64,000 nucleotides of DNA from Candidatus Moraniibacteriota bacterium (lineage in GTDB: Bacteria; Patescibacteriota; Minisyncoccia; Moranbacterales; UBA1568), in contig CP064975.1 in NCBI GenBank assembly GCA_016699425.1, positions 1,149,369-1,213,368 on the forward strand, written 5' to 3'. Positions 8,564 to 34,090 of the stretch are shown piece by piece. The notes under the pieces are model-generated. The model was given only the letters and a program-made list of their open reading frames with translations. It was not told the DNA's origin and did no database searches. The number at the start of each line of letters is the position of its first letter. The stretch's first letter is position 1. The position numbers and the translations under genes are program-made.

Positions 8564-9599
8564 TTGGGTTTTTCCTCCCCCCCACCCTCGCCTTCCGCCC
8601 AGGACGGATCCCTGCCTGACCGGCAGGCAGGCCTTCGCATCGTCACTTCCCCCCTCCCGATCTCACTCGTCGCCGAACCAGGGACGACCATCACGACCGA
8701 ACTGAAGGTGAAGAACGGCGGCACCGAACCTGAGACCCTGAAGATTGATATCCTGAAGTTCAACGCCTATGAAGACACGGGGAAGCCCGCCCTCCACGAC
8801 CTTGAACCGACGGATGAGTTCGCGAAATGGGTGACCTTCTCCGAACCGACCTTTACCGTGTTGCCCGAGGAGTGGAAGACGGTCACGGCCACGTTCACCG
8901 TCCCGGAGGAAGCCTCGTTCGGTTACTACTACGCCTTCGTTTTCTCTCGGGCCGAGGATCAGGAAGCCAAGCCTGGAGAGACGGCGGTCGTCGGCGGCAC
9001 GGCGACCCTCGTCCTCCTCGAAGCACGGGTACCAAATGCCTTGCGTGAGATCACCGTCACCGAGTTCTCGACGGACAAGACGGTCTATGAGTTCCTCCCG
9101 GTCAACTTCACCGTTTCTCTCAAGAATTCGGGCAATGTCCATGTCGCCCCGCGGGGCAATATCTTCCTCTCTCGGGGCAGTAACAAAGACATCGCCCTCC
9201 TCGAACTCAATTCCGGCAAGGGGAGCATCCTCCCGGATTCAACGCGTATCTTTGAGACGGGATGGAAGGATGGCTTCCCAGTTTACGAGGAAACGATCGA
9301 AAATGGCCAAGTCGTGCTCGATGAACTCGGTCATCAGACCTATCACCTGACCTGGGACTTCAAGAACGCTTCCCACCTCCCGTTTCGGCAAGTATACTGC
9401 CAAGATGCTCCTCGTTTACGATGATGGGACGCGGGACATCCCGATCGAGGGAGTGGTATCGTTTTGGGTGATGCCGTGGCGGTTGATTGCGGGGGCGGTG
9501 TTCAATTTCGCACTCATTATCGGACTCGGCTGGTATGTCATCCGCCTGCGCCGACGTTTGAAGCGGCTTCAATCAAATGATCAGTCACTCGTGAAATAG
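8564..9599 (+). pseudogene. Cell-surface beta-sandwich protein with a C-terminal TM anchor (duplicated family, copy 1); frameshifted
   Basis: Body ORF 8564..9424 continues as ORF 9405..9599 (TM tail WVMPWRLIAGAVF...) after a +1 C in a C-run near 9392. The signal-peptide region carries a further +C shift. Confidence 0.5.
8592..9530 (+). repeat. Tandem gene duplication, copy 1 (~940 bp, period ~1063 bp)
   Basis: Identical to 9655..10567 except for three short homopolymer indels. The shared antisense ORF N-termini (MNFRISIFRVSGSVPP...) confirm the repeat. Confidence 0.85.
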
Positions 9600-9602
9600 A
9601 GT

Positions 9603-10654
9603 ATGAAGTATTTCTTCCTCATCCTGACCATCGCTTTCCTCACCCCCTCCCTCGCTTCCGCCCAGGACGGATCCCTGCCTGACCGGCAGGCAGGCCTTCG
9701 CATCGTCACTTCCCCCCTCCCGATCTCACTCGTCGCCGAACCAGGGACGACCATCACGACCGAACTGAAGGTGAAGAACGGCGGCACCGAACCTGAGACC
9801 CTGAAGATTGATATCCTGAAGTTCAACGCCTATGAAGACACGGGGAAGCCCGCCCTCCACGACCTTGAACCGACGGATGAGTTCGCGAAATGGGTGACCT
9901 TCTCCGAACCGACCTTTACCGTGTTGCCCGAGGAGTGGAAGACGGTCACGGCCACGTTCACCGTCCCGGGAGGAAGCCTCGTTCGGTTACTACTACGCCT
10001 TCGTTTTCTCTCGGGCCGAGGATCAGGAAGCCAAGCCTGGAGAGACGGCGGTCGTCGGCGGCACGGCGACCCTCGTCCTCCTCGAAGCACGGGTACCAAA
10101 TGCCTTGCGTGAGATCACCGTCACCGAGTTCTCGACGGACAAGACGGTCTATGAGTTCCTCCCGGTCAACTTCACCGTTTCTCTCAAGAATTCGGGCAAT
10201 GTCCATGTCGCCCCGCGGCAATATCTTCCTCTCTCGGGGCAGTAACAAAGACATCGCCCTCCTCGAACTCAATTCCGGCAAGGGGAGCATCCTCCCGGAT
10301 TCAACGCGTATCTTTGAGACGGGATGGAAGGATGGCTTCCCAGTTTACGAGGAAACGATCGAAAATGGCCAAGTCGTGCTCGATGAACTCGGTCATCAGA
10401 CCTATCACCTGACCTGGGACTTCAAGAACGCTTCCCACCTCCGTTTCGGCAAGTATACTGCCAAGATGCTCCTCGTTTACGATGATGGGACGCGGGACAT
10501 CCCGATCGAGGGAGTGGTATCGTTTTGGGTGATGCCGTGGCGGTTGATTGCGGGGGCGGTGTTCATCGGCATCTTCTTCCTCATCGGTATGAAGTCAACT
10601 CTCTCAAAAATATGGAAACGTCTCTTCTCGCGTTCATCCGAAACTTCTGTCTGA
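9603..10654 (+). pseudogene. Cell-surface beta-sandwich protein with a C-terminal TM anchor (duplicated family, copy 2); two frameshifts
   Basis: Good signal peptide MKYFFLILTIAFLTPSLASA. A +G at about 9967 and a -GG at about 10212, relative to copy 1, split the reading frame across ORFs 9603.. and 9890..10654. Confidence 0.5.
9655..10567 (+). repeat. Tandem gene duplication, copy 2
   Basis: See copy 1. The flanking signal-peptide and C-terminal tail regions differ between the two copies. Confidence 0.85.
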
Positions 10655-18300: not shown

Positions 18301-21300
18301 GACCGACTCTGGGGTAACGATAATCAACCCATCGGGCCAAGTCTTGAACCAGTATTCGGATGTCACCGCCGATGATTACACAGCGGTCGCACTCTCAAGC
18401 AGAGGGTTTATGTATGCGCTCAATACCACGCAGGACCAACTCGAGCGCTGGGATACGATTGACACTGATAAGGCGAGTGAGGTGAATGGTACGTTTAGTC
18501 GTAAATGGGATGAGACGATTGGGACTGGCCCAGCCCTCGCTTCGGCGACCTTCAATATTGTGGCTGGGATGCCAGATAACCTGGAGATTGCCGAACGCGC
18601 CTCGAATAATTTGAACACGGAAGACGTTATTTATGTTGGCCATAGTCTTGGCATGGCGGAACTGCATGAACATACGACGCAGGCCTTTGGCTGGGTCAAG
18701 CATTACAATGCAACCCGTCAAACGCCGATGATGATGCTCGCTGGTATAAATGATATGGTGCTTCCCATGGACGATACCTCTGGAACCCAGGCGCAGGACC
18801 TCGCTATCGCCAATACGGACATGGCCATCAAAGGAACACCAACGCTCGGGGTGAACGGTGTGCAGGGCAAGGCAATAAACTTCGATAATACCGACGATTA
18901 TCTGTGTTCTGATAATGATCAGAACAATACCTGCGATGTCGATACCGCTTTTAATATGTCGACGGTCGGTTGGACGCTCAGTCTGTGGTTTCGGCATTCG
19001 ACCACAGCACCGGCCTCGGGTGTCGATATGCTTTTTGAAAAATGCGTGACGGCGACACCGGGCCAGGCGATAGGCTGCGTAGCCGCCTACATGACTACTA
19101 CCGGTGTAGTAGTAGTTGCCAATGATGATGATGCGACTTGGACCCAAGGGTCGTCGTATGATATTACCGCTACCTCGACCTATGCTTACAATGACAACCA
19201 GTGGCACAACCTGATTATCACAAGAACCAACGCCAACGACGTGGATTCCTGGATCGATGGGCAGGGCATGAACCTTTCCACGGCTACCGGTCTGACAGCT
19301 ACGTTTGACGGTTCGCAGATCGTCAGTATTGGTGCTTCCTGTGTGACGACAGTGACCGCCAACTGTGGTGCAGCCACAAATTTCTGGGATGGCCAAATTG
19401 ACGATGTGCAATACATTGTCGGGACAACGACACAAGCGACCATGACTCAGCTCTATGTTCGCCGGTATTTCAATGTGGAACGACCCCGGGCGAGCAAGAA
19501 AACGGTATCTGTGACCAACGCTACCTCAGCTTCCTCGACTTCTTTGACCGATACGGGGGAGGCTTGGTATGTAAACGAATTTGCCGGACAGATTGTCGAG
19601 ATTACGGGGAGTGACGATGCGGATTGTATCGGCATCACACGACGTATCTCCTCCAACACGGCCACAGCACTCACTTTTACCCCGGCCGTACCGGGAGCGT
19701 GTACCATGGATACTTCGGCTGACTTTCGGATTGATCCAGAGAAGCTCTATGGTGCATCGAGTAGTATTGCCGGCATCGGCATTACGGCAGAAACGCCGCT
19801 TGGTGAAGCCCGTCAACTGTGTGTGGGAACCAATAGTGGCACCGATACGGGTGGTGTGACTTGTTATAACCATCAAGACGGCCCGAGTATCGTGGCTGAC
19901 GTCTATCATAGCCAAGCGAGCAAAACAGATGATAGCGGCACGGACTGGACAGGAACGGATTATGACGACATACGGGCAGTCGATCTTTCTTCTCGAACGC
20001 TCATCATAGCTTCCGAAGGACACTTTACCAGCAGAACGGAAGACGTGCGTCTGGGGCAAGGTCTGGAATATATCAGTAACCAACTCTATGCCATTCGTCA
20101 GGAAATCGTTCTCGACGGTATCACAGCGGTCGGGAGTACGGGTTCAGAAATCGGTTTCACTGGTGGGGCGGACTTGGCGGAGCGGTACTATTCGAATGAG
20201 GCGCTCGTAGCGGGCGAGGTGGTCGCGATTGATTCGTCTCTGGAGGCGGGCGTGAAGAAAACTGTCGGGGCGTATCAGCGTGATGTGCTCGGTATAGTGG
20301 CGACGACTCCTGGCATCGTCCTCGGCGCCGAGGCGGAAAACGGGTATCCGATCGCGCTCGTCGGCCGTGTCCCGGTGAAGGTGACGAATGAAAATGGCCA
20401 GATCTATGCGGGTGACCGGGTGACCGCCGCGAGCCGGCCGGGTCATGCCATGCTCGCGACTCAGGCCGGCCGCGTCATCGGCCAGGCGCTGGGCGATGCG
20501 GTCGACTGGACGGTCTGTGAAGGGGAGGACCCGTTGAATCACGATGCCGTACTCTGCACGACGGTCATGGTCTTCGTCAATCTGTCGGACTACTACGGCC
20601 AGCCAGTCGAGCTCGCCATGGCGGCCCGTGATGCGGCGGATGCAGCTCTGGCTCCGGAGGTCGGGGACGAGGAGCTGGGACTGTCCGGTGCGGGTACTAC
20701 GGTCCGGCTCGTGACGGCCGCTCCGACACGGGAGGAGAAAATCATGGCGTTTCTGAAGGAAATCCGTGACGAGCGGGCGCAGTCAAACGCTGCTCCGTCC
20801 GAAGTCTTCACCGATCGGGTGGCTGCCAGTACCGAGATCATCACACCGAAATTGATCGTCGATGAGATATTTGCGAAGTCGATCAAGGCGGACAGTATCG
20901 AAGGGCTGTCTATCTGGACGGATCAGATTGCATCACTCCAGGAAAAGTATGCTGGGCTCGAGGCGGCTCCTCTGACGGATACGACTGGTACCTCGGCTGT
21001 GCCTCCATCCCTCGCGGTCGCGATGAAACAGCTCGCCACGGATTCGATCACGGTGCAGCTCGATGGTTCTATCCTCGGCAAACTCTCGGTCGAGGGGGCA
21101 CTCCGGATTGGCGGGGATGCACAGTTCGATGGCAACACGGTCTTTGCCAGGCTCGCCTCCTTCCTCGGCGATACGTTGTTCCAGGGCAAGGTGTTCTTTG
21201 AGCAAGCACCGACCTTTGGTTCAAATACGGCGGGCTTCGCCCTCATCGAACAGGGAGCGAAACACGTGCGGGTGAGTTTCGATGAGTCGTATGAGGAGCA

Positions 21301-26259: not shown

Positions 26260-26304
26260 AATTTGCTAGCCTGAGCCTACAAAACGGTAATCTCTTTGCT
26301 CACT

Positions 26305-27615
26305 ATGGCCAAAAAACCGCTGAAAAAGAAGAAGCCGACGCCGAAGAAACCGGCTTCCAAGAAGAAGTCAGCCAGGAAACCGGCTCCGAAAAAGCCGGCC
26401 AAGAAGCGACCGGTTGCCAAGAAGACGCCGCGGAAGGTGAAAAAATCAGCCCCGAAAAAGAAGCCCGTTGCCAAGAAGCAGTTGTCTCCGAAGAAGTCTG
26501 TAGCAGGGAAGAAACCCTCACGTGGGGAGTTGGCCCAAAACGCTTTTGATGAACTGATCAGCCGTGGCAAGCAGCGCGGCTTTGTCACCGAAGACGAGAT
26601 CATTCACATCCTCCCGGATATCGAGCAGGACCTCGATGGTCTCGAAAATCTCTATGAGCAGCTCGAGACTTCCGGCATTCGCATCGTCGGTTCCGAAGAA
26701 ATGTTGAAGGTCCATGAAGAGAAAGAGGAAGTCGTTGAAAAGGGGAAGAAGAAAGACAAGATGATGGACTTGGGCGAGAGCGATGATGCCTCGGACTTGG
26801 TCCAGATGTATCTGAAGGAAATTGGCCGCGTGACCCTCCTCACGGGCGATGAAGAGGTGAAGCTCGCCAAGGCCATCGAGAAGGGTGACCTCGTCGCGAA
26901 ACAGCGGCTGACCGAGGCCAATCTCCGACTCGTCGTTTCGATCGCCAAGAAGTATGTCGGCCGTTCGCACAATCTGTCACTTCTCGACCTCATTCAAGAG
27001 GGGAATATCGGCCTCTTCCGGGCGGTGGAGAAATTCGATTACCGCAAGGGGTTCAAGTTTTCGACGTATGCGACCTGGTGGATTCGCCAGGCGATCACTC
27101 GGGCTCTGGCCGACCAGTCCCGCACCATCCGCATCCCGGTCCACATGGTGGAGACGATCAATAAGTACGCCCAGGTGACCCGACGTCTCGTCCAGGAGCT
27201 CGGGCGTGAGCCGCTCGCCGAGGAAATCGCGGCTGAAATGAATCTGGAAGTCGACAAAATCCGCCATATTCAGAAGATCTCGCAGGAGACGGTCTCACTC
27301 GAGACGTCCGTCGGTGACAATGATGATGACTCCGTGCTTGGTGACTTTATCGAAGATACCGAGACCGTCATGCCGCACCAGATGGCGGCGCGTAAGCTCT
27401 TGCGCTCCCATATCGGAGCCATCCTCGACGAGCTCACCCCGCGCGAGCAGAAGATACTCCGGATCCGGTTTGGATTGGAAGATGGTGTCACCCACACGCT
27501 CGAGGAAGTTGGACAGGAATTCGGCGTCACCCGCGAGCGTATCCGTCAGATCGAAGCCAAGGCACTCGAGAAAATCCGTGAACATGACCACCTGAAAAAG
27601 CTCCGAGATTACTAA
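26305..27615 (+). CDS. rpoD: RNA polymerase primary sigma factor with a Lys-rich N-terminal extension
   Basis: Regions 1.2-4 ([12 protein letters not shown]..., [13 protein letters not shown]..., [15 protein letters not shown]..., C-terminal HTH). About 60 N-terminal residues of KKPxxKK repeats. ATG at 26305. Confidence 0.9.
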
Positions 27616-28750: not shown

Positions 28751-28906
28751 TTGGACGGATCGATTCGAGCTCCTGAGCTTTCCTTGAAGGGTAGCCGCCG
28801 CGACGGTTGCCTTTTTTCTTTTCTTCCCTATAATGAGAACGTTGCCTACGAGGCAGCTTAACAATCGAATATTCCGGCGTAGCTCAGTGGTAGAGCAGGT
28901 GACTGT

Positions 28907-29480
28907 GGACATATGGATGGTATACCGATGAATGGATGCCAGACACAAGAACCTATGCTGATCGTCGAGAGTACTTGAAACGGGCGGTTGCCAAACGGCG
29001 CAAGGCCGTGCGGAGGCGCGCGATCGAGTACAAAGGCGGAAAGTGTTCCCGTTGCGGTTATAAACGGTGTCAAGACGCGCTCGAATTCCATCATGCCCAT
29101 GGCGGCAAGGATTTCGGGATTCCTCAGGATGGACTCACTCGAAGTTGGGACAGAGTCCGAGAGGAAATAGACAAGTGCATCTTGGTATGCGCCAATTGCC
29201 ATAGGGAGGAACACGCAGAATTACGCAGCCTTTCGGAGAAATCCGAGAGTGATAAATGAGGTGAATTGCTGGAAGCCTACGGTCGATCAGCTCGGCTATG
29301 GTAATCAGCAGCCAAGCCCCAGTTTGTATTGGGGAAGGTTCAGAGACTATCTCGCAAGAGAGTACTTCGATATCATACGATATCGCGGGAAGCGCCTCAC
29401 TCCTAAGTCCGCTCTGTGAAGACAGATGACGGAGACGGAGATGATATAGTCCATTCTTTTCGGAAACGAAGAGGGAAATG
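28907..29480 (+). mobile_element. Group I self-splicing intron carrying an HNH endonuclease ORF
   Basis: Conserved core elements are readable: P AATTGCTGGAAG (29265-76), Q AATCAGCAGCC (29303-13), R GTTCAGAGACTA (29338-49), S ATGATATAGTCC (29441-52). U precedes the 5' splice site and G ends the intron. Confidence 0.75.
28936..29259 (+). CDS. HNH homing-type endonuclease encoded within the group I intron
   Basis: CSRCGY...LEFHHAHGGKDF...CILVCANCHREEH is an HNH / zinc-finger motif. Lies in a peripheral loop 5' of the P3-P9 core. Confidence 0.8.
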   Translation: MPDTRTYADRREYLKRAVAKRRKAVRRRAIEYKGGKCSRCGYKRCQDALEFHHAHGGKDFGIPQDGLTRSWDRVREEIDKCILVCANCHREEHAELRSLSEKSESDK

Positions 29481-29514
29481 TAATCACTTGGTCGTAGGTT
29501 CGAACCCTACCGCC

Positions 29515-29600
29515 GGAGCAGTTAAATTCAAGGCTTACTCAAGCCTTGTTTTTTGTTACCCTTCATGAAGGTTAGAACCTGGTATAATCAGGGTATGAAT
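29515..29600 (+). repeat. Intergenic cassette A: tRNA 3' end + terminator + GTTACCCT + extended -10 (TGgTATAAT at 29580-88)
   Basis: Homologous to cassettes at 30262..30345 and 34012..34090. The -10 lies 6 nt before the ATG at 29595. Confidence 0.6.
29530..29554 (+). terminator. Rho-independent terminator after the tRNA (part of repeated cassette A)
   Basis: AAGGCTT-ACTC-AAGCCTT followed by GTTTTTT. Confidence 0.65.
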
Positions 29601-29825
29601 AAATCTTGGCACGAAAAACATAAGTTATTGATGCCCTCTATTCTTCAAGAGAGGGTGAAGTGGCACGAGCAACATTCTAAACATTGTGGCTGCCGAAAAG
29701 ATCTGCCGAAAACAATTGTTGCTGCTCTCAAAGAACAAGGCAAAAAAGTCTGTAGTCGCGGACACATTTACAGCGGCAGCAGTTCCTGTCCTATTTGTTG
29801 GCCCGGACAACAAAAACAACACTAG
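29595..29825 (+). CDS. Small Cys/His-rich zinc-ribbon-like protein
   Basis: MNKSWHEKHK...CGC...C...H...CPICW. AT-rich island gene. Confidence 0.35.
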   Translation: MNKSWHEKHKLLMPSILQERVKWHEQHSKHCGCRKDLPKTIVAALKEQGKKVCSRGHIYSGSSSCPICWPGQQKQH

Positions 29826-29828
29826 CGT

Positions 29829-30211
29829 ATGAACACGACTCTCTATAAAGACGCACTTGGTTGGGGAATTATGCTTTGGCTTGTTGGCTATGTTCTTGGG
29901 ATCGTCCTTTTACACTTGTGGCACCCTCTATCCTTGGATGGATTATTATGCCCATCGGAACAATCATTACGCTTTGGGTACTCCTCAAGAAAATAAGGAG
30001 TGAATCTTTTCAGGACTATGTTTTTATCGCAATTGCCTGGACTCTTATCGCCGTGGTTTTTGACTATGTATTTCTCGTGATGATATTCAAACCAGTAGAT
30101 GGATATTATAAGTTGGATGTGTACGTATACTATGCTCTCACCCTGATTCTCCCACTGGCTACTGGTTGGAGCAAAAGAATTTCTCAAAAAATAGATAGTT
30201 CAGGTATATAA
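29829..30211 (+). CDS. Small integral membrane protein, apparently frameshifted at about 29905-29925 (ATG-frame 29829, continuing in the 29861 frame)
   Basis: Two overlapping hydrophobic reading frames join into a plausible multi-TM protein. A single downstream ATG alternative is at 29948. Confidence 0.3.
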
Positions 30212-30261
30212 ATATTCTCGTACTGGCGTAAAATTACGGTTCTAACACCATTCACGATGCG

Positions 30262-30345
30262 GAGCAATGAAATGTGAGGCTTACTGAAGCCTCTTTTTTG
30301 TGCCACAAGGAGTAGGTTAGAACCTGGTATACTTTCGATATGAAA
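30262..30345 (+). repeat. Intergenic cassette B: terminator + extended -10 (TGgTATACT at 30326-34), 6 nt before the ATG at 30341
   Basis: Near-identical hairpin and GGTTAGAACCTGGTATA motif to cassette A. Confidence 0.6.
30276..30299 (+). terminator. Rho-independent terminator (cassette B)
   Basis: GAGGCTT-ACTG-AAGCCTC followed by TTTTTTG. Confidence 0.6.
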
Positions 30346-30737
30346 CTAAAGTCATTTTTTCAAGTATAGCCACCTTTTTTATAGGAGGAGTTATTTTTCT
30401 TTGGAAAGAAAAACAATTGACTCTGGATCATCCTCAAGCAAGCGATAGTCGAGCAGAGACTTGTTTGGTGGAAACGATTAGAGAAAGGCCTGATATTGGA
30501 TACGATGCCTGGAAGGAAAGTCATCCAGAGAGAATGCAATTGGCTGGTTATTATTCAAGAGATTCAGAGGGAGTTTATTGGTATCATACGAAGATTATTG
30601 GTGCAGATCCAGGGACCTTTGACGTTTACAGTGATCGCTATGCTCACGATATGTCAAACGTCTACTACGCGGGGAATAGTGATTTATATACCATTATTGG
30701 AGCGGATACTGAGAGTTTCCAAGCAAAATGCTTTTAA
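30341..30737 (+). CDS. Secreted DKNYY-repeat-like protein; frameshift in a T-run near 30356-30361
   Basis: DKNYY-like repeats (GVYWYHTKIIGADPGTFDV..., NVYYAGNSDLYTIIGADTESF). The signal peptide MKLKSFF/SSIATFFIGGVIFLW is only recovered by a 1-nt shift in the homopolymer. Confidence 0.4.
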
Positions 30738-30777
30738 AAGTCTCAATTACCACCCACAAATTGATAAGTAATTCAAT

Positions 30778-31335
30778 ATGAACCAAGAAATCACATTTAT
30801 TACAGGTAACGAAAAGAAGGCAGAATATCTTGCCAAGTATCTTGGCTTTCCGGTAAAGCGCGCGAAGCTTCATCTTGAAGAAATTCAATCTTTAGACTTG
30901 AGAGAGATTGTAGAACATAAAGTTCGGCAGGCATTCGAAAAAGTCAAAAGTCCAGTGATAGTGGAGGACGTTTCGCTCGAATTTGAAGCTCTGGGAAAGT
31001 TACCTGGCCCATTTATACGCTTTTTCGTTGAAGAAGTTCCTTTTGAAACGATTTGCTCGATGATTGATGGTAAGTCTCGAAAAGCTACCGCCCGCTGTGT
31101 TTTTGGATATTACAATGGCAAAACTCTCAAGCTCCTGGAAGGAAAACTAGACGGTGAAATAGCTAAGGCTCCTGCAGGTGAAAATGGCTATGGCTGGGAC
31201 AAGATTTTCATTCCAGAAGGGTACTCTGTTACCAGAGCAGAGCTGGATGAAGCAGATGATGAAAAAACATACTTACAGATAAAGCCATTTGCTGAGTTGA
31301 AGAAGTTTCTTCAGGAGGTCAGTAATTCGAAGTGA
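30778..31335 (+). CDS. rdgB: Non-canonical purine NTP pyrophosphatase (Ham1/RdgB/ITPase family)
   Basis: FITGNEKKAEYL...IVEDVSLEFEALGKLPGPFIRF...GYGWDKIFIPEGY matches the Ham1 fold pattern. Confidence 0.75.
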   Translation: MNQEITFITGNEKKAEYLAKYLGFPVKRAKLHLEEIQSLDLREIVEHKVRQAFEKVKSPVIVEDVSLEFEALGKLPGPFIRFFVEEVPFETICSMIDGKSRKATARCVFGYYNGKTLKLLEGKLDGEIAKAPAGENGYGWDKIFIPEGYSVTRAELDEADDEKTYLQIKPFAELKKFLQEVSNSK

Positions 31336-31347
31336 AATAGTTAACAT

Positions 31348-32343
31348 ATGCCTAAATCTATTGAAATATCCCATCTTTCGAAAAAATTTACTTTTCCTGT
31401 CAAAAGCAGTGCTTCAGGTTGGGTAAAGAACTTATTTAATCCAGAGGTAAAGGAAATTGCTGCAGTAAATGACGTTTCCTTTTCGGTAGCCGAAGGTGAG
31501 AGAATTGCCTTTATTGGCCCAAATGGCGCAGGGAAATCTACCACGATCAAGATGCTCACGGGGATACTATTTCCCACGTCGGGCAGTATAAGTGTGCTCG
31601 GACTTGATCCGACCAAAGACAGGAAGAAACTCGCCTACCAAATCGGAACCGTTTTTGGCCAGCGTTCACAGTTACTCCCTAATCTTCCTGTAACAGATTC
31701 TCTAGAGTTTTTTGGCGTTATGTATGATATGTCGGATGGGGAGATCAAGGAGCGGATTGCTCAATTAACAGAGCTTTTCGAGCTTAATGATTTTATTGAT
31801 CAGCCAGTTCGTAAACTTTCCCTTGGACAGAGAATGAGAGCTGAAGTTGCTACCTCTCTTATCCATAAGCCAAAAGTTATTTTCTTAGATGAACCCACTA
31901 TTGGTCTTGATGTAGTAGCTAAAAAGTCTCTGAGGGACTTATTGTTGCGAATCAACGAAGAGGAAGGAACTACAATATTCTTAACTTCTCACGATGTGGG
32001 AGACATACAGTCTCTATGCAATAGAACAATCATTATAAATCACGGGAGCGTCATCAAAGATTTGCCTACAGAAGACTTATCAAAAACTTTTGTTTATGAA
32101 AAATATATTGACCTTATTCCTACCGAAAAGTTTCAAGACTTTCCTGAACTTATTGCTGGGATTCAATACTCAAAAAAGAGTCCTAACCTTATAACTGTGG
32201 TGGTGGACATCAATAAAATAAGTGTCAAAGAGTCTCTTAAGAAACTTCTAGATATGTTTGATTTGGAAGATGTTGACGTTTACAACGCTGACCTTGAAAC
32301 GGTTATTAGGCACATTTATGAGAAGGATGCGACTAGCCTCTAA
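31348..32343 (+). CDS. ABC transporter ATP-binding protein
   Basis: Walker [11 protein letters not shown], signature LSLGQRMR, Walker [12 protein letters not shown], plus a C-terminal accessory domain. Confidence 0.85.
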
Positions 32344-33118
32344 AATTCTCAGAACATTGATAAAAGATCAGATGTATCATCCTGATCGTCTTATTGCTGA
32401 TACTTTTGCCATAGTGGCTCGATGCGGAGTTCTTCTGGCTCTCTATTGGTATGTTTTTCAACTAAAGGGAGGTGAAGTAAATGGAGTAAGTTTTACTGTA
32501 GTGGCCTGGAGTATGTTTTTTTACTTTGCCTTTTCGGTTTTACGATTAAGGGATATTTCAAGGTTAATAATGGGAGATGTCCAATCTGGGAACGTGGAAG
32601 TTTTATTTAATAAGCCGATCTCATACTTAGCCTATAGAATGTGGTGGCAACTTGGAGCTGGTCTCTACCCTTTCCTCATTACCACTCTTCTCGGCGGGGC
32701 AGTGCTGGCTCTTGTTACAGGTACTCCTGACACTATGAGACTCTACATCTTTTTGCCCTCGCTCTTTCTAGCTTTCATTGGCGCGGCACTTCTTTCTCTC
32801 GTTCTCTACTCCATCATAGGACTACTCGCTTTTTGGATTGAAGAAATAAATCCTATTTTCTGGATAGTAGACAAGGCCGTAATGATATTAGGTGGATCAT
32901 ATCTGCCTGTGGCGTTATTCCCAGTTTTTATGTATAAATTAGCAATTTTTAGCCCTTTCGGAGCTTCACAATTCATTACCCACTCAGTTTATGACTCCTG
33001 GCAATCAAATTGGTATACGTTACTCGGAATCCAATTATTTTGGATAATCGTTCTTTCTCTAGTTGCTTACATAATGTTTGCTAAGGCGAGACAGAAGGTT
33101 TCAATAAATGGAGGTTAA
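32318..33118 (+). CDS. ABC-2 type permease subunit
   Basis: Six predicted TM helices, positioned after the ATPase. ATG 32318 is in frame within ORF 32258. Confidence 0.55.
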
Positions 33119-33917
33119 GCCTATGTGGAAGGAACTAAAATTTGCTTTCTATACAATCAAAAAGAACATCCAAAGTAGTGCTGAGCTTCGCACGAGCTTT
33201 CTGATGAATATTATTGGGATGGCCATTAACAATACCTCCTTTATCATTTTATGGATTTTCTTTGTTCAGTCAGTAGGAGTGATCGGGGGATGGACTGCCG
33301 CTGATATAGTGGGACTCCAAGGCTTCCTCGCTATCTCTTATGGCATAGTTTTTTCCGTAGGAGTAGGCATAAGAAAACTTCCAGAATATGTAACTTCAGG
33401 AGCTTTTGATAGATTTATGCTTTCTCCTAAAAGCTTACTTACTCGAGTAGCTACGGCTTCATTTAGCCCATCTGGAATTGGGGACATTGTTTTTGGGGCT
33501 ACTTGCCTGATAATCTATGGAATTTTAATTCACGCTACTGCTTTTCAGGTAGCCTTGATGCTCATCTTTGTTTTTCTCTCTGTGATCGTCTTTGGTGCTA
33601 CCGCTATAGCGATCTACTCCCTTAGTTTTTTCTTTATGGATTCGACTGCCACAACAAACGGGATTTTCGAGTTATTTATGACACCTACTCTTTTTCACGG
33701 GGGAGCATTCCAAGGAGGAATGAGGTTTATATTCACTTTTATTATCCCCTCGCTTCTTATTGGAGCTCTGCCAGTAGAGGCAGTGAGAGATATTTCACTC
33801 CTCAAGCTCTTACTTGTGAGCGTATTAGCCATTCTTTGGCTGATTTTGGCTATTAAGATTTTTCACAAAGCTATCCGAAGATACGAAAGTTCGAATTTAA
33901 TGACCTTTGGAAGCTAG
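33108..33917 (+). CDS. ABC-2 type permease subunit (second)
   Basis: Polytopic membrane protein. Start overlaps the upstream stop. Confidence 0.55.
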   Translation: MEVKPMWKELKFAFYTIKKNIQSSAELRTSFLMNIIGMAINNTSFIILWIFFVQSVGVIGGWTAADIVGLQGFLAISYGIVFSVGVGIRKLPEYVTSGAFDRFMLSPKSLLTRVATASFSPSGIGDIVFGATCLIIYGILIHATAFQVALMLIFVFLSVIVFGATAIAIYSLSFFFMDSTATTNGIFELFMTPTLFHGGAFQGGMRFIFTFIIPSLLIGALPVEAVRDISLLKLLLVSVLAILWLILAIKIFHKAIRRYESSNLMTFGS

Positions 33918-34011
33918 CTGTTATAAGCCAATAGTGGGAACGCTTCTAGCTCGAACTTCAAATCTTGAGCGATCTGTTTCCAGTTCAGAGTTCTAAAGCT
34001 GTCCGCTAGGG

Positions 34012-34090
34012 GGAGCAGTTAAAAACAGGGCTAAGATGAGTCTTGTTTTTTGTTACCCTAAGCAGGGCTTGAACTGATATACTGGATGCA
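34012..34090 (+). repeat. Intergenic cassette C: GGAGCAGTTAAA (direct repeat of the tRNA 3' end) + GTCTTGTTTTTTGTTACCCT + TATACT (34078-83)
   Basis: About 50-nt imperfect direct repeat of 29515..29565 at the far side of the AT-rich island. Confidence 0.5.

Follow-up and report, generated by a model that had tools for sequence, protein, structure and literature searches.

In the window, a stretch of 64,000 nucleotides of DNA that probably comes from a Moranbacteria-like patescibacterium, the anticodon loop of a tRNA-Asn(GUU) gene is very probably interrupted, after U35 and before U36, by a subgroup IA group I intron that is intact and of a mobile type. An open reading frame (ORF) for a predicted HNH endonuclease lies within the loop of the intron's P1 helix. 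With an insertion between positions 35 and 36 and the anticodon GUU, two features by which the published patescibacterial tRNA-Asn intron class is recognized (PMC13011429), the element is a further member of that class, and our survey of related loci leaves this classification unchanged.

The split tRNA-Asn gene and its intron

With default settings ARAGORN called no tRNA across the whole 64 kb. When introns were allowed it called tRNA-Asn(gtt), with 574 nt of intron following position 35, and this is the sole tRNA gene within the window. As the default search finds no tRNA here, such a genome would be scored as lacking tRNA-Asn. Missed intron-split tRNAs thus affect estimates of how complete patescibacterial genomes are, as PMC13011429 has already pointed out. 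The initial annotation had proposed a split tRNA-Asn(GUU) at 28873-29518, and both exons, the acceptor stem and the T arm are indeed present there, in agreement with ARAGORN. The gene and its flanks contain the following features:

28807-28834, + strand: promoter-like site of the tRNA gene, TTGCCT-16 nt-TATAAT (10/12 consensus matches; the tRNA starts about 38 nt further downstream)
28873-28906, + strand: tRNA-Asn exon 1 (ARAGORN), with the acceptor 5' strand, D arm, anticodon stem 5' strand and loop bases C32 U33 G34 U35
28907-29480, + strand: group I intron, subgroup IA, 574 nt (from Rfam, ARAGORN, junctions in relatives and paired structure)
28918-28926, + strand: extended -10-like element TGGTATACC, 9 nt ahead of the HNH start codon
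28936-29259, + strand: HNH endonuclease ORF, 107 aa, within the P1 loop
29481-29518, + strand: tRNA-Asn exon 2 (ARAGORN), with U36 A37 A38, anticodon stem 3' strand, variable loop, T arm and acceptor 3' strand
29529-29555, + strand: terminator-like hairpin of 8 bp followed by a T run

Exon 1 ends in ...CTGT at 28906; exon 2 begins with TAATCAC at 29481 and ends with the discriminator G73 at 29518, CCA being unencoded. Joined, the exons make a 72-nt mature tRNA-Asn(GUU) without CCA, with the acceptor stem TCCGGCG/CGCCGGA, the T arm GTAGG-TTCGAAC-CCTAC (in exon 2) and the spliced loop CUGUUAA, and the spliced product would read ...GGUGACUGUUAAUCACU... across the junction. The RNAfold minimum-energy structure of the joined tRNA is not a clean cloverleaf, which is common among tRNAs.

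The intron matched Rfam RF00028 (Intron_gpI) at 29171-29473 on the + strand over the full model (1-253), with 76.3 bits against a gathering score of 50 bits (E = 1.3e-17), and RF00028 was the sole Rfam family above threshold within the window. This score and the length of 574 nt from ARAGORN bear out the group I intron of the initial annotation. The core elements claimed with it held up as well: R (GGTTCAGAGACTA) and S (GATGATATAGTCC) match the consensus near-perfectly. The intron runs from GGACAT... to ...AAATG with the terminal omega G at 29480, so that, as had been noted earlier, U is the last base before the 5' splice site and G the final intron base. The junctions CTGT/...G/TAA recur in 76 of 81 related loci, and a G directly precedes TAA in all related loci that fit the exon model. 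Given the junctions common to these 76 loci, the intron and tRNA signal in the sequence is far above chance.

We drew the secondary structure from P2 to P9 by hand and scored it on 74 related sequences:

28903-28907, + strand: P1 5' strand (exon CUGU plus intron G+1), paired with CGCAG at 29224-29228; 5' splice site at 28906/28907
29220-29228, + strand: internal guide sequence, AUUA (P10 partner of 3' exon UAAU), then CGCAG (P1 3' strand)
29230-29249, + strand: P2 hairpin, 8 bp, GAAA loop; 91.9% of cells paired, both-side changes in 8/8 pairs
29257-29263 with 29393-29399 (29257-29399), + strand: P3, 92% paired; encloses P4-P6a, the P7 5' strand, P7.1 and P7.2
29267-29272 with 29305-29310, + strand: P4 (P4/P5 97-100% paired)
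29275-29277 with 29300-29302, + strand: P5 (P4/P5 97-100% paired); P5a, 29281-29285 with 29293-29297
29311-29313 with 29337-29339, + strand: P6 (97-98% paired); P6a, 29317-29322 with 29329-29334
29345-29349, + strand: P7 5' strand (P7 99.7% paired, nearly invariant)
29350-29353 with 29358-29361, + strand: P7.1, 92% paired
29368-29374 with 29379-29385, + strand: P7.2, 72% paired
29400-29403 with 29437-29440 (29400-29451 with the P7 3' strand), + strand: P8, 95% paired, both-side changes in 4/4 pairs
29447-29451, + strand: P7 3' strand, TAGTC (P7 99.7% paired, nearly invariant)
29453-29454 with 29478-29479 (29453-29479, enclosing P9), + strand: P9.0, paired in 73/74 sequences
29456-29462 with 29467-29473, + strand: P9, GAAA loop, 88% paired

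Across the 74 sequences 90.9% of the 4540 cells were paired, compared with 35-44% in slid-partner controls, and 58 of the 72 pairs of the hand-drawn structure showed compensatory changes; none of 500 shuffles reached the observed values of pairing and compensation. Compensatory changes were present in P3, P4/P5, P6, P7.1 and P7.2, and P3 and P7 form the group I pseudoknot. P1 carries a U-G wobble at the splice site and its +1 pair covaries among the 74 relatives (G:C 58, A:U 9, U:A 1, G:U 1, unpaired 5), while the guide-sequence GCAGC is invariant among them. P9.0 occurs in seven strand combinations (AC/GU 45, AU/AU 21, plus GU/AC, GC/GC, GC/GU, AA/UU and GA/UC). P10 has 4 bp in the window and is weak or variable among relatives; an inner P8 hairpin (29413-29426) is specific to the window, with 47% of cells paired and few letters in the other sequences.

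The Rfam alignment has a 41-nt insertion at the point where we place P7.1 and P7.2. Extra helices P7.1/P7.2 between the P7 5' strand and the P3 3' strand are the Michel-Westhof criterion for subgroup IA. Because both helices are present and covary, the intron belongs, on this comparative evidence, to subgroup IA.

The HNH reading frame and transcription signals

The HNH ORF had been placed in a 5' peripheral loop, and this loop is precisely that of P1. Codons 96-107 traverse P10/IGS and P2; P3 then opens with the TGA stop codon as its first three bases. As the last 12 codons thus encode the guide and P2, translation and ribozyme folding are not possible simultaneously on one RNA molecule. Upstream, the frame is closed by a single in-frame stop, TGA at 28900-28902, and contains no ATG, GTG or TTG before the start codon.

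A comparison of the ORF with HNH profiles, suggested in the initial annotation, gave a score of 20.3 bits against Pfam HNH (PF01844), just short of the cut-off of 21.4. All residues that are invariant in a 28-member family alignment are kept (two CxxC pairs, HH, and N..H in CANCHRE). These residues, C37, C40, H52, H53, C85, N87, C88, H89 and H93, comprise the catalytic His/Asn/His and the zinc Cys pairs, and several close homologues have precomputed PF01844 hits. NCBIfam had no family for the window HNH, and an exact search for its sequence in the contig collection gave no match. The AlphaFold model was of moderate confidence (pLDDT 75.7). Foldseek gave no significant match to it; the top matches were mostly HNH enzymes (T4 endonuclease VII, Cap5, Cas9 HNH, Gme HNH), all weak, with a best E of 0.13 for T4 endonuclease VII. 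The best PDB sequence match, also weak, was to the maturase/reverse transcriptase of a group II intron, in its HNH domain (6me0_C, E = 1e-4), and we dismissed matches to cytochromes as chance CxxCH. Compared with close relatives for which dS was computable, dN/dS was 0.03-0.12, a substitution pattern (about 0.1) that indicates strong purifying selection on the ORF. Among the 75 ORF-bearing loci, about 73 have an intact ORF or one that is open from a non-ATG start; just two, L014 with a frameshift and L030 with an in-frame stop, looked damaged.

We take the site at 28807-28834 as the putative promoter of the tRNA. Inside the intron, TGGTATACC is a possible promoter for a nearly leaderless HNH mRNA. 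A TAnnn[T/C] hexamer was found 4-12 nt before the HNH ATG in 59 of 65 relatives, compared with a mean of 30.6 after shuffling. A sigma-70 promoter scan did not call this internal promoter because it has no -35 hexamer. Several further genes in the window have the same -10-like layout ahead of them.

Relatives, proposed mechanism and alternative readings

HNH relatives were found in 529 of 185,579 species genomes scanned. Both HNH and RpoD matched best in metagenome-assembled genomes (MAGs) labelled Moranbacteria/Moraniibacteriota, with which the window also shares its gene order; MAGs bearing the labels Omnitrophota, Planctomycetia and Limisphaerales likewise contain the HNH-carrying form. The label of L012, the closest host locus, is an implausible 'Bdellovibrionales'. 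In the published study, 95 complete Patescibacteria genomes have 22 intron-containing tRNA genes, 15 of which are tRNA-Asn interrupted at 35/36, and PF01844 HNH genes lie in four of these 15 introns (PMC13011429). A tRNA-Asn intron with its own HNH gene, described as uncommon in the initial annotation, is thus rare across bacteria overall (529 of 185,579 genomes) but ordinary within Patescibacteria (4 of 15).

The order dnaG-rpoD-(nudix/ORF)-tRNA-Asn[intron] is shared with relatives, with dnaG in 25 and rpoD in 36 of 80 related loci. Between the window and L001, HNH had a dN of 0.10 and a dS of 1.0, and RpoD a dN of 0.18 with saturated dS; between the window and L012, dN was 0.07 for RpoD and 0.18 for HNH. 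Neighbour-joining trees of RpoD and HNH disagreed in topology, and these discordances may be read as signs of mobility. Synonymous divergence of host genes was saturated for most pairs, and therefore the argument for transfer rests mainly on dN and tree shape. We found no integrase in the low-GC island adjoining the tRNA (29.56-34.06 kb). HNH identity also correlated with the RpoD identity of the host (Spearman 0.69). As the one tracks the other overall, inheritance of the HNH gene is mostly vertical, and active homing is putative.

In phages, the same HNH family is free-standing within tRNA arrays and adjoins tRNA-Asn in 60 of 80 loci, a count uncorrected for relatedness (single linkage at 70% put 68 of the 80 phage HNH cores in one cluster). 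At three loci (L070, L100 and L102) a free-standing HNH gene accompanies a tRNA-Asn with an ORF-less 35/36 group I intron, and in the window and about 75 other loci the gene lies inside the P1 loop. We tentatively suggest, as an idea with rather less than even chances, that this HNH lineage is specialized on the tRNA-Asn gene and exists in three layouts: free-standing without intron, free-standing with an ORF-less intron, and within the P1 loop. If so, the family preserves steps from a free-standing phage homing gene to an intron-borne gene, the intron probably travels between Patescibacteria and other phyla by way of phages, and the guide-overlapping ORF with its possible own promoter would separate expression of the nuclease from maturation of a probably single-copy tRNA.

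For the window we propose the following mechanism, in which splicing follows standard group I chemistry. The tRNA would be transcribed as its own unit, from the promoter near 28807-28834 to the terminator at 29529-29555. By sequence and covariation, CUGU and G+1 pair with CGCAG (29224-29228) to form P1 with its U-G wobble; the guide sequence lies 318 nt downstream of the 5' splice site because the HNH gene fills the P1 loop. The P3-P9 core would then fold and free guanosine attack at 28906/28907, after which P10 (UAAU with AUUA at 29220-29223) and P9.0 would set G29480 in the G-binding site of P7, and exon joining would yield the loop CUGUUAA. Splicing by the window intron is suggested by analogy with a homologous ORF-less intron that was spliced in vitro (PMC13011429). 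The HNH protein, a predicted zinc-bound beta-beta-alpha-metal nuclease with a basic N-terminal helix, would probably be expressed on a nearly leaderless mRNA that starts from the internal -10-like promoter. It would probably cut or nick intron-less tRNA-Asn genes near the insertion site, with repair copying the intron in (homing).

The alternative that survives best, which we nevertheless consider unlikely, accepts that the intron splices and holds that the HNH protein no longer serves mainly in homing and is kept for another job, for example as a maturase-like protein or a host-beneficial nuclease. Strong conservation (dN/dS about 0.1) of an ORF that is intact in nearly all ORF-bearing loci and its mostly vertical inheritance (Spearman 0.69) would fit such a role, since a pure homing gene is expected to decay if few unoccupied alleles are left in the lineage, and the best PDB match is to a maturase/reverse transcriptase HNH domain (6me0_C, E = 1e-4). 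However, homologous ORF-less introns exist (L070, L100), one such homologue splices alone in vitro (PMC13011429), the family stands free in phages with no intron nearby, as fits a DNA-targeting selfish gene, and the HNH and host trees disagree. Much less probable still is a dead locus, in which a non-splicing intron has left a tRNA pseudogene and tRNA-Asn is supplied from elsewhere. ARAGORN's finding of no other tRNA in the 64-kb view is neutral on copies elsewhere in the genome, whereas all core helices are intact with P7 nearly invariant, purifying selection acts on the ORF, the tRNA-Asn lies between promoter-like and terminator-like sites, and the locus is syntenic in dozens of genomes. Finally, a tRNA-Thr(UGU) gene with the intron two bases upstream, at 33/34, is scarcely credible and was rejected: ARAGORN calls Thr(tgt) i(33/34) in about half of the related loci and joining 28904 to 29479 also yields a foldable Thr(tgt) in the window, but the intron would then end in A (29478) and not G, the P1 register would be wrong (GCAG in register with CUGU puts the U-G wobble at U35, not U33), every relative has G directly before TAA and G as discriminator, and the sequenced spliced product of a homologue has its junction at 35/36 (PMC13011429).

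Under the preferred reading, an intact, mobile-type IA intron in tRNA-Asn, a reduced genome would leave the maturation of a probably single-copy tRNA to a ribozyme, and the set of HNH gene, intron and phage relatives offers a concrete system in which to test how homing endonuclease genes come to lie in introns.

Comparison with known introns and endonucleases

This type of tRNA-Asn intron was catalogued in 2020 as Asn.4Ug (Williams 2020, bioRxiv 10.1101/2020.01.27.920355), and the patescibacterial tRNA-Asn 35/36 introns were characterized in 2025-26 as subgroup IA (Nakagawa et al., mSystems 2026, PMC13011429). The published introns and that of the window share the host gene, the site, the U at -1, the 3' G and subgroup IA, probably the phylum, and also the Asn/Thr confusion by ARAGORN/tFind. 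Self-splicing at 35/36 was demonstrated in vitro for one homologous intron, and was abolished by a G-to-C change of its 3'-terminal base; that intron is ORF-less, whereas the window intron has an HNH ORF (PMC13011429). We found no mention of an ORF in the P1 loop, of the guide/P2 overlap or of phage relatives in the available part of PMC13011429. The spread over 529 genomes, the HNH-carrying form in MAGs with labels of other phyla, the free-standing phage relatives beside tRNA-Asn and the three paired loci go beyond the four complete-genome cases reported there.

The cyanobacterial tRNA-fMet(CAU) intron (I-Ssp6803I) is likewise an anticodon-loop group I intron with its own homing endonuclease gene, but it occupies another tRNA at site 33/34. 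Its nuclease belongs to the PD-(D/E)XK family (PF11645), and most bacterial tRNA introns are of group IC (PMC13011429). Self-splicing anticodon-loop group I introns, as we propose for the window, are those of tRNA-Leu(UAA) in cyanobacteria and plastids, tRNA-Ile(CAU) in Azoarcus and tRNA-Arg(CCU) in Agrobacterium. These classical bacterial tRNA introns are IC3, about 200-250 nt long and located at 34/35 or 36/37, and to our knowledge the Leu, Ile and Arg introns have no ORFs. In them, as in the window, the anticodon stem adjoins P1 and P10. The window intron differs in being IA with P7.1 and P7.2, at 35/36 and ORF-bearing.

An IA-type core combined with an HNH homing endonuclease, as in the window, is known from I-HmuI of SPO1 and I-TevIII of the T-even nrdB intron; the phage introns, however, lie within protein-coding genes and carry their ORFs in other loops. 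The endonuclease genes of T4 introns have their own promoters inside the intron. By PDB sequence search and Foldseek, the 107-aa HNH protein had no detectable close sequence relation to the HNH enzymes of phage IA introns. SegB of T4 and the HNH genes of the T5 tRNA region are free-standing in phage tRNA clusters, like the relatives of the window HNH, although SegB is a GIY-YIG enzyme. Bonocora and Shub reportedly described 'collaborative homing' as a route to mobile introns, and the three loci with a free-standing HNH gene and an ORF-less tRNA-Asn intron appear, by analogy, to resemble that layout.

The split tRNA-Asn gene and its ribozyme

The initial annotation had described a tRNA-Asn(GUU) gene split by a group I intron at 28873-29518, and the window sequence agrees with this description:

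28807-28834, + strand: predicted promoter-like site upstream of the tRNA gene
28873-28906, + strand: tRNA-Asn exon 1, TCCGGCG TA GCTC AGTGGTA GAGC A GGTGA CTGT
28936-29259, + strand: HNH endonuclease ORF (107 aa) inside the intron
29481-29518, + strand: tRNA-Asn exon 2, TAA TCACT TGGTC GTAGG TTCGAAC CCTAC CGCCGGA G
29529-29555, + strand: predicted hairpin and T run downstream of the tRNA gene

With default settings, ARAGORN reported no tRNA across the entire 64 kb; once introns were allowed, it called tRNA-Asn(gtt), interrupted after position 35 by a 574-nt intron. The Rfam group I intron model matched 29171-29473 (76.3 bits, E = 1.3e-17, gathering score 50) and was the sole Rfam family above threshold in the window. 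The overall observation is confirmed, and its interpretation is supported. We then compared the window with its best 80 relatives using a strict tRNA-Asn exon model. The junctions ...CTGT / intron ...G / TAA... were present in 76 of these 81 loci, the other five being truncated by contig ends or containing Ns. About half of the related loci were labeled Thr(tgt) 33/34 by ARAGORN, and this two-base Asn/Thr ambiguity of such calls is already in the literature (PMC13011429). The Thr(tgt) 33/34 reading of the window gene was rejected, as the intron would have to end in A.

Almost every locus shows the order invariant GCAGC, 8-bp hairpin, UGAAnAAUGAGGUGAAUUGCUGG; the hairpin loop is of the GNRA type, most often GAAA or GUAA. 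The exon CUGU pairs with GCAG in P1, which gives a U-G wobble at the splice site, and covariation is seen at the adjoining pair, formed by intron position +1 and the base 5' of GCAG (G:C 58, A:U 9, U:A 1, G:U 1, unpaired 5). P2-P9 were drawn by hand on the window sequence and the pairs were counted across a 74-sequence alignment. The proposed group I fold was borne out: 90.9% of cells were paired compared to 35-44% after sliding the partners by 1-3 columns, changes on both sides were seen in 58 of the 72 pairs, and none of 500 shuffles attained the observed values. P7 was essentially invariant. P9.0, in which the dinucleotide after P7 pairs with the one preceding the terminal G, was paired in 73 of the 74 sequences, with seven different strand combinations. 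The hairpins P7.1 (UCUC-GCAA-GAGA) and P7.2, both with compensatory changes, lie between the 5' strand of P7 and the 3' strand of P3; their presence in the predicted fold marks the intron as subgroup IA, in agreement with the published classification. A minority of relatives (e.g. L024, L037, L041, L051, L060 and L070) lack P7.1/P7.2 and have a variant P3.

We also observed a possible pairing of the intron start with the intron end (window 28909-28912 with 29478-29481). In ORF-bearing introns, the first 10 bases tend to hold the complement of the last three: CAC occurred near the start in 29 of 47 loci with the tail GUG versus 2 of 29 with other tails, and the rare tails ACG, GCG and UCG had their complement there in 6 of 6 cases. 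This complement was absent from the ORF-less intron of L070, a bacterial relative. As the same three-base tail also pairs with J7/9 as P9.0, the start-tail complement might form a helix that closes the intron, or might compete with P9.0.

The HNH reading frame inside the intron

The start of the ORF lies 30 nt inside the intron and that of the guide sequence at intron position 318-319, so that the ORF occupies the P1 loop; in the 237-nt ORF-less intron of L070 the guide sequence is at position 11. The last 12 codons (..ELRSLSEKSESDK) span the RNA segment that forms the P10 strand, guide sequence and P2, and P3 begins with the three bases of the TGA stop codon. Because of this overlap, RNA constraints are probably behind the conserved C-terminal peptide LRSL.EKSES. 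The dN/dS values of 0.03-0.12 (close relatives with computable dS), which were similar without the overlapping codons, indicate that the HNH protein is under purifying selection. The residues C37, C40, H52, H53, C85, N87, C88, H89 and H93, invariant in an alignment of 28 homologues, make up the predicted zinc-bound HNH motif. The ORF scored 20.3 bits against the Pfam HNH profile (cut-off 21.4), and its closest PDB hit by sequence was an HNH domain from a group II intron maturase (6me0_C, E = 1e-4). An AlphaFold model (pLDDT 75.7) placed a beta-beta-alpha unit after a long N-terminal helix, and its Foldseek matches, all weak (best E = 0.13), were mostly HNH nucleases. Two relatives carry a damaged ORF: L014:2963-3509 has a frameshift near the start, and L030:2974-3536 has an in-frame stop at about codon 24, which could be an alternative genetic code instead of damage. 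In L075 and L077 the frames are open without an ATG start.

Upstream of the ATG at 28936 the frame is closed by a TGA at 28900-28902, and the interval holds no ATG, GTG or TTG; no Shine-Dalgarno sequence precedes this ATG. Inside the intron, 9 nt ahead of the ATG, lies TGGTATACC (28918-28926). A -10-like hexamer was found 4-12 nt ahead of the HNH start in 59 of 65 relatives (shuffled mean 30.6), the usual forms being TGGTATACT at a distance of 9 nt and TATAAT at 6 nt. We infer a putative internal promoter, which would yield a nearly leaderless HNH mRNA. The same layout (extended -10-like TGnTAnnnT) is present at window positions 18742, 22458, 23499, 29580, 42659 and 28918; these motifs lie 4-11 nt ahead of long-ORF start codons, where a Shine-Dalgarno sequence would not fit, pointing to leaderless mRNAs as a probable common feature of the genome.

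Relatives in genomes and phages

A protein search with the ORF returned 2046 homologues; among those with a name, the closest were from Candidatus Moranbacteria. A scan of one genome per species found HNH relatives in 529 genomes, the best 80 of which were retained for locus analysis. Although the published survey of complete genomes recorded the HNH-bearing tRNA-Asn intron in Patescibacteria only, it also occurs in MAGs with labels outside that phylum, namely Omnitrophota (L061, L062, L075, L077), Limisphaerales (L074) and Planctomycetia (L076), these taxa being assembly labels, which for several TPA assemblies are implausible (e.g. Bdellovibrionales, Gammaproteobacteria).

HNH relatives, 46-65% identical, were found on at least 568 IMG/VR viral contigs, and relatives were also present in 277 deposited phage records, including the cultured Vibrio phage VH1_2019 (a KVP40 relative) and Bacillus phage Goe5. 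In the best 80 viral loci the gene is mostly free-standing within tRNA arrays. The nearest tRNA within 400 nt on either side was tRNA-Asn(GTT) in 60 of the 80, which are not independent events as many of these loci are mutually related, while tRNA-Asn made up only 11% of all tRNAs there. It often lies 0-10 nt downstream, abutting the 3' end of the ORF. Despite their relatedness, the loci vary widely in the tRNA on the other side. At three loci a free-standing HNH gene stands beside a tRNA-Asn with an ORF-less intron:

L070:2629-3291: bacterial MAG labeled Altimarinota; 237-nt intron, fits the 35/36 model, GCAG guide sequence
L100:655-1149: viral contig; 206-nt intron, 35/36 junction, GCAG guide sequence, R and S elements
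L102:3037-3758: viral contig; 194-nt intron, ARAGORN call only, outside the strict exon model and with no R motif found

These loci could be intermediate between a free-standing and an intron-borne HNH gene. In a neighbour-joining HNH tree (midpoint root, no support values), most intron-borne copies formed one large clade with L070 nested within it and the phage copies outside. This fits, but does not prove, the movement of a free-standing gene targeting tRNA-Asn into the intron.

Host neighbourhood and the published intron class

Upstream of the window tRNA are dnaG, rpoD, a NUDIX gene and a 187-aa ORF; of the best 80 related loci, 25 contained dnaG and 36 contained rpoD. Ahead of its conserved sigma-70 regions, the RpoD homologue carries a long N-terminal extension (26296-26560) rich in lysine, proline and alanine. 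HNH identity to the window correlated with RpoD identity (Spearman 0.69), indicating mostly vertical descent. The closest host, L012, is an exception: its identity to the window is 98% in the conserved part of RpoD (dN 0.07) and 78% in DnaG, but only 71% in HNH (dN 0.18). L001, in contrast, is distant in RpoD (dN 0.18, saturated dS) and DnaG (dN 0.71), with an HNH dN of only 0.10 (dS 1.0). In neighbour-joining trees, built without support values and for HNH from a short alignment, the window grouped with L012 by RpoD but with L001/L002 by HNH. This mismatch suggests at least one lateral replacement.

A 4.5-kb low-GC segment (29515-34059, GC 0.40 versus about 0.55) starts at the 3' end of the tRNA-Asn gene. 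Direct repeats of the tRNA 3' end and terminator delimit it:

29515-29562: direct repeat
30261-30308: direct repeat, 67% identical
34012-34059: direct repeat, 81% identical

A degenerate T-arm/acceptor remnant lies near 33990-34016. Besides small ORFs, the segment encodes an RdgB/HAM1 NTP pyrophosphatase and an ABC-2 ATPase; the two ORFs adjacent to the ATPase gave no NCBIfam match and are taken to be its permeases. No integrase was seen in the segment, and none of its cargo was found beside tRNA-Asn in relatives, except for weak generic ABC ATPase matches. The segment looks like one or two putative tRNA-targeted islands. Elsewhere in the window, an identical 25-mer (TGATATCCTGAAGTTCAACGCCTAT) occurs twice on the + strand, 1063 nt apart (8746-8770 and 9809-9833), and may reflect duplication of a segment or a domain that is repeated.

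Finally, we compared the element with published tRNA introns. Williams 2020 (bioRxiv 10.1101/2020.01.27.920355) raised the intron-interrupted tRNA types from 4 to 21 cases, with Asn.4Ug among them according to PMC13011429. That article (Nakagawa et al. 2026) reports 15 tRNA-Asn introns at 35/36 in 95 complete Patescibacteria genomes, with PF01844 HNH genes in four tRNA-Asn introns, and precise self-splicing in vitro that was abolished by a 3'-terminal G to C change. It assigns 25 of 28 introns at 35/36 to subgroup IA and no Patescibacteria tRNA intron to IC, and in its data set HNH-bearing IA introns at 35/36 occur only in Patescibacteria. A tRNA-Asn intron with its own HNH ORF had initially been regarded as uncommon; by this account it is ordinary for the phylum and already described. 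The phage tRNA-Asn link and the details of how the ORF is built into the ribozyme add slightly to the modest interest of the element. As it fits every one of the PMC13011429 points, the window element is a member of the class described there.
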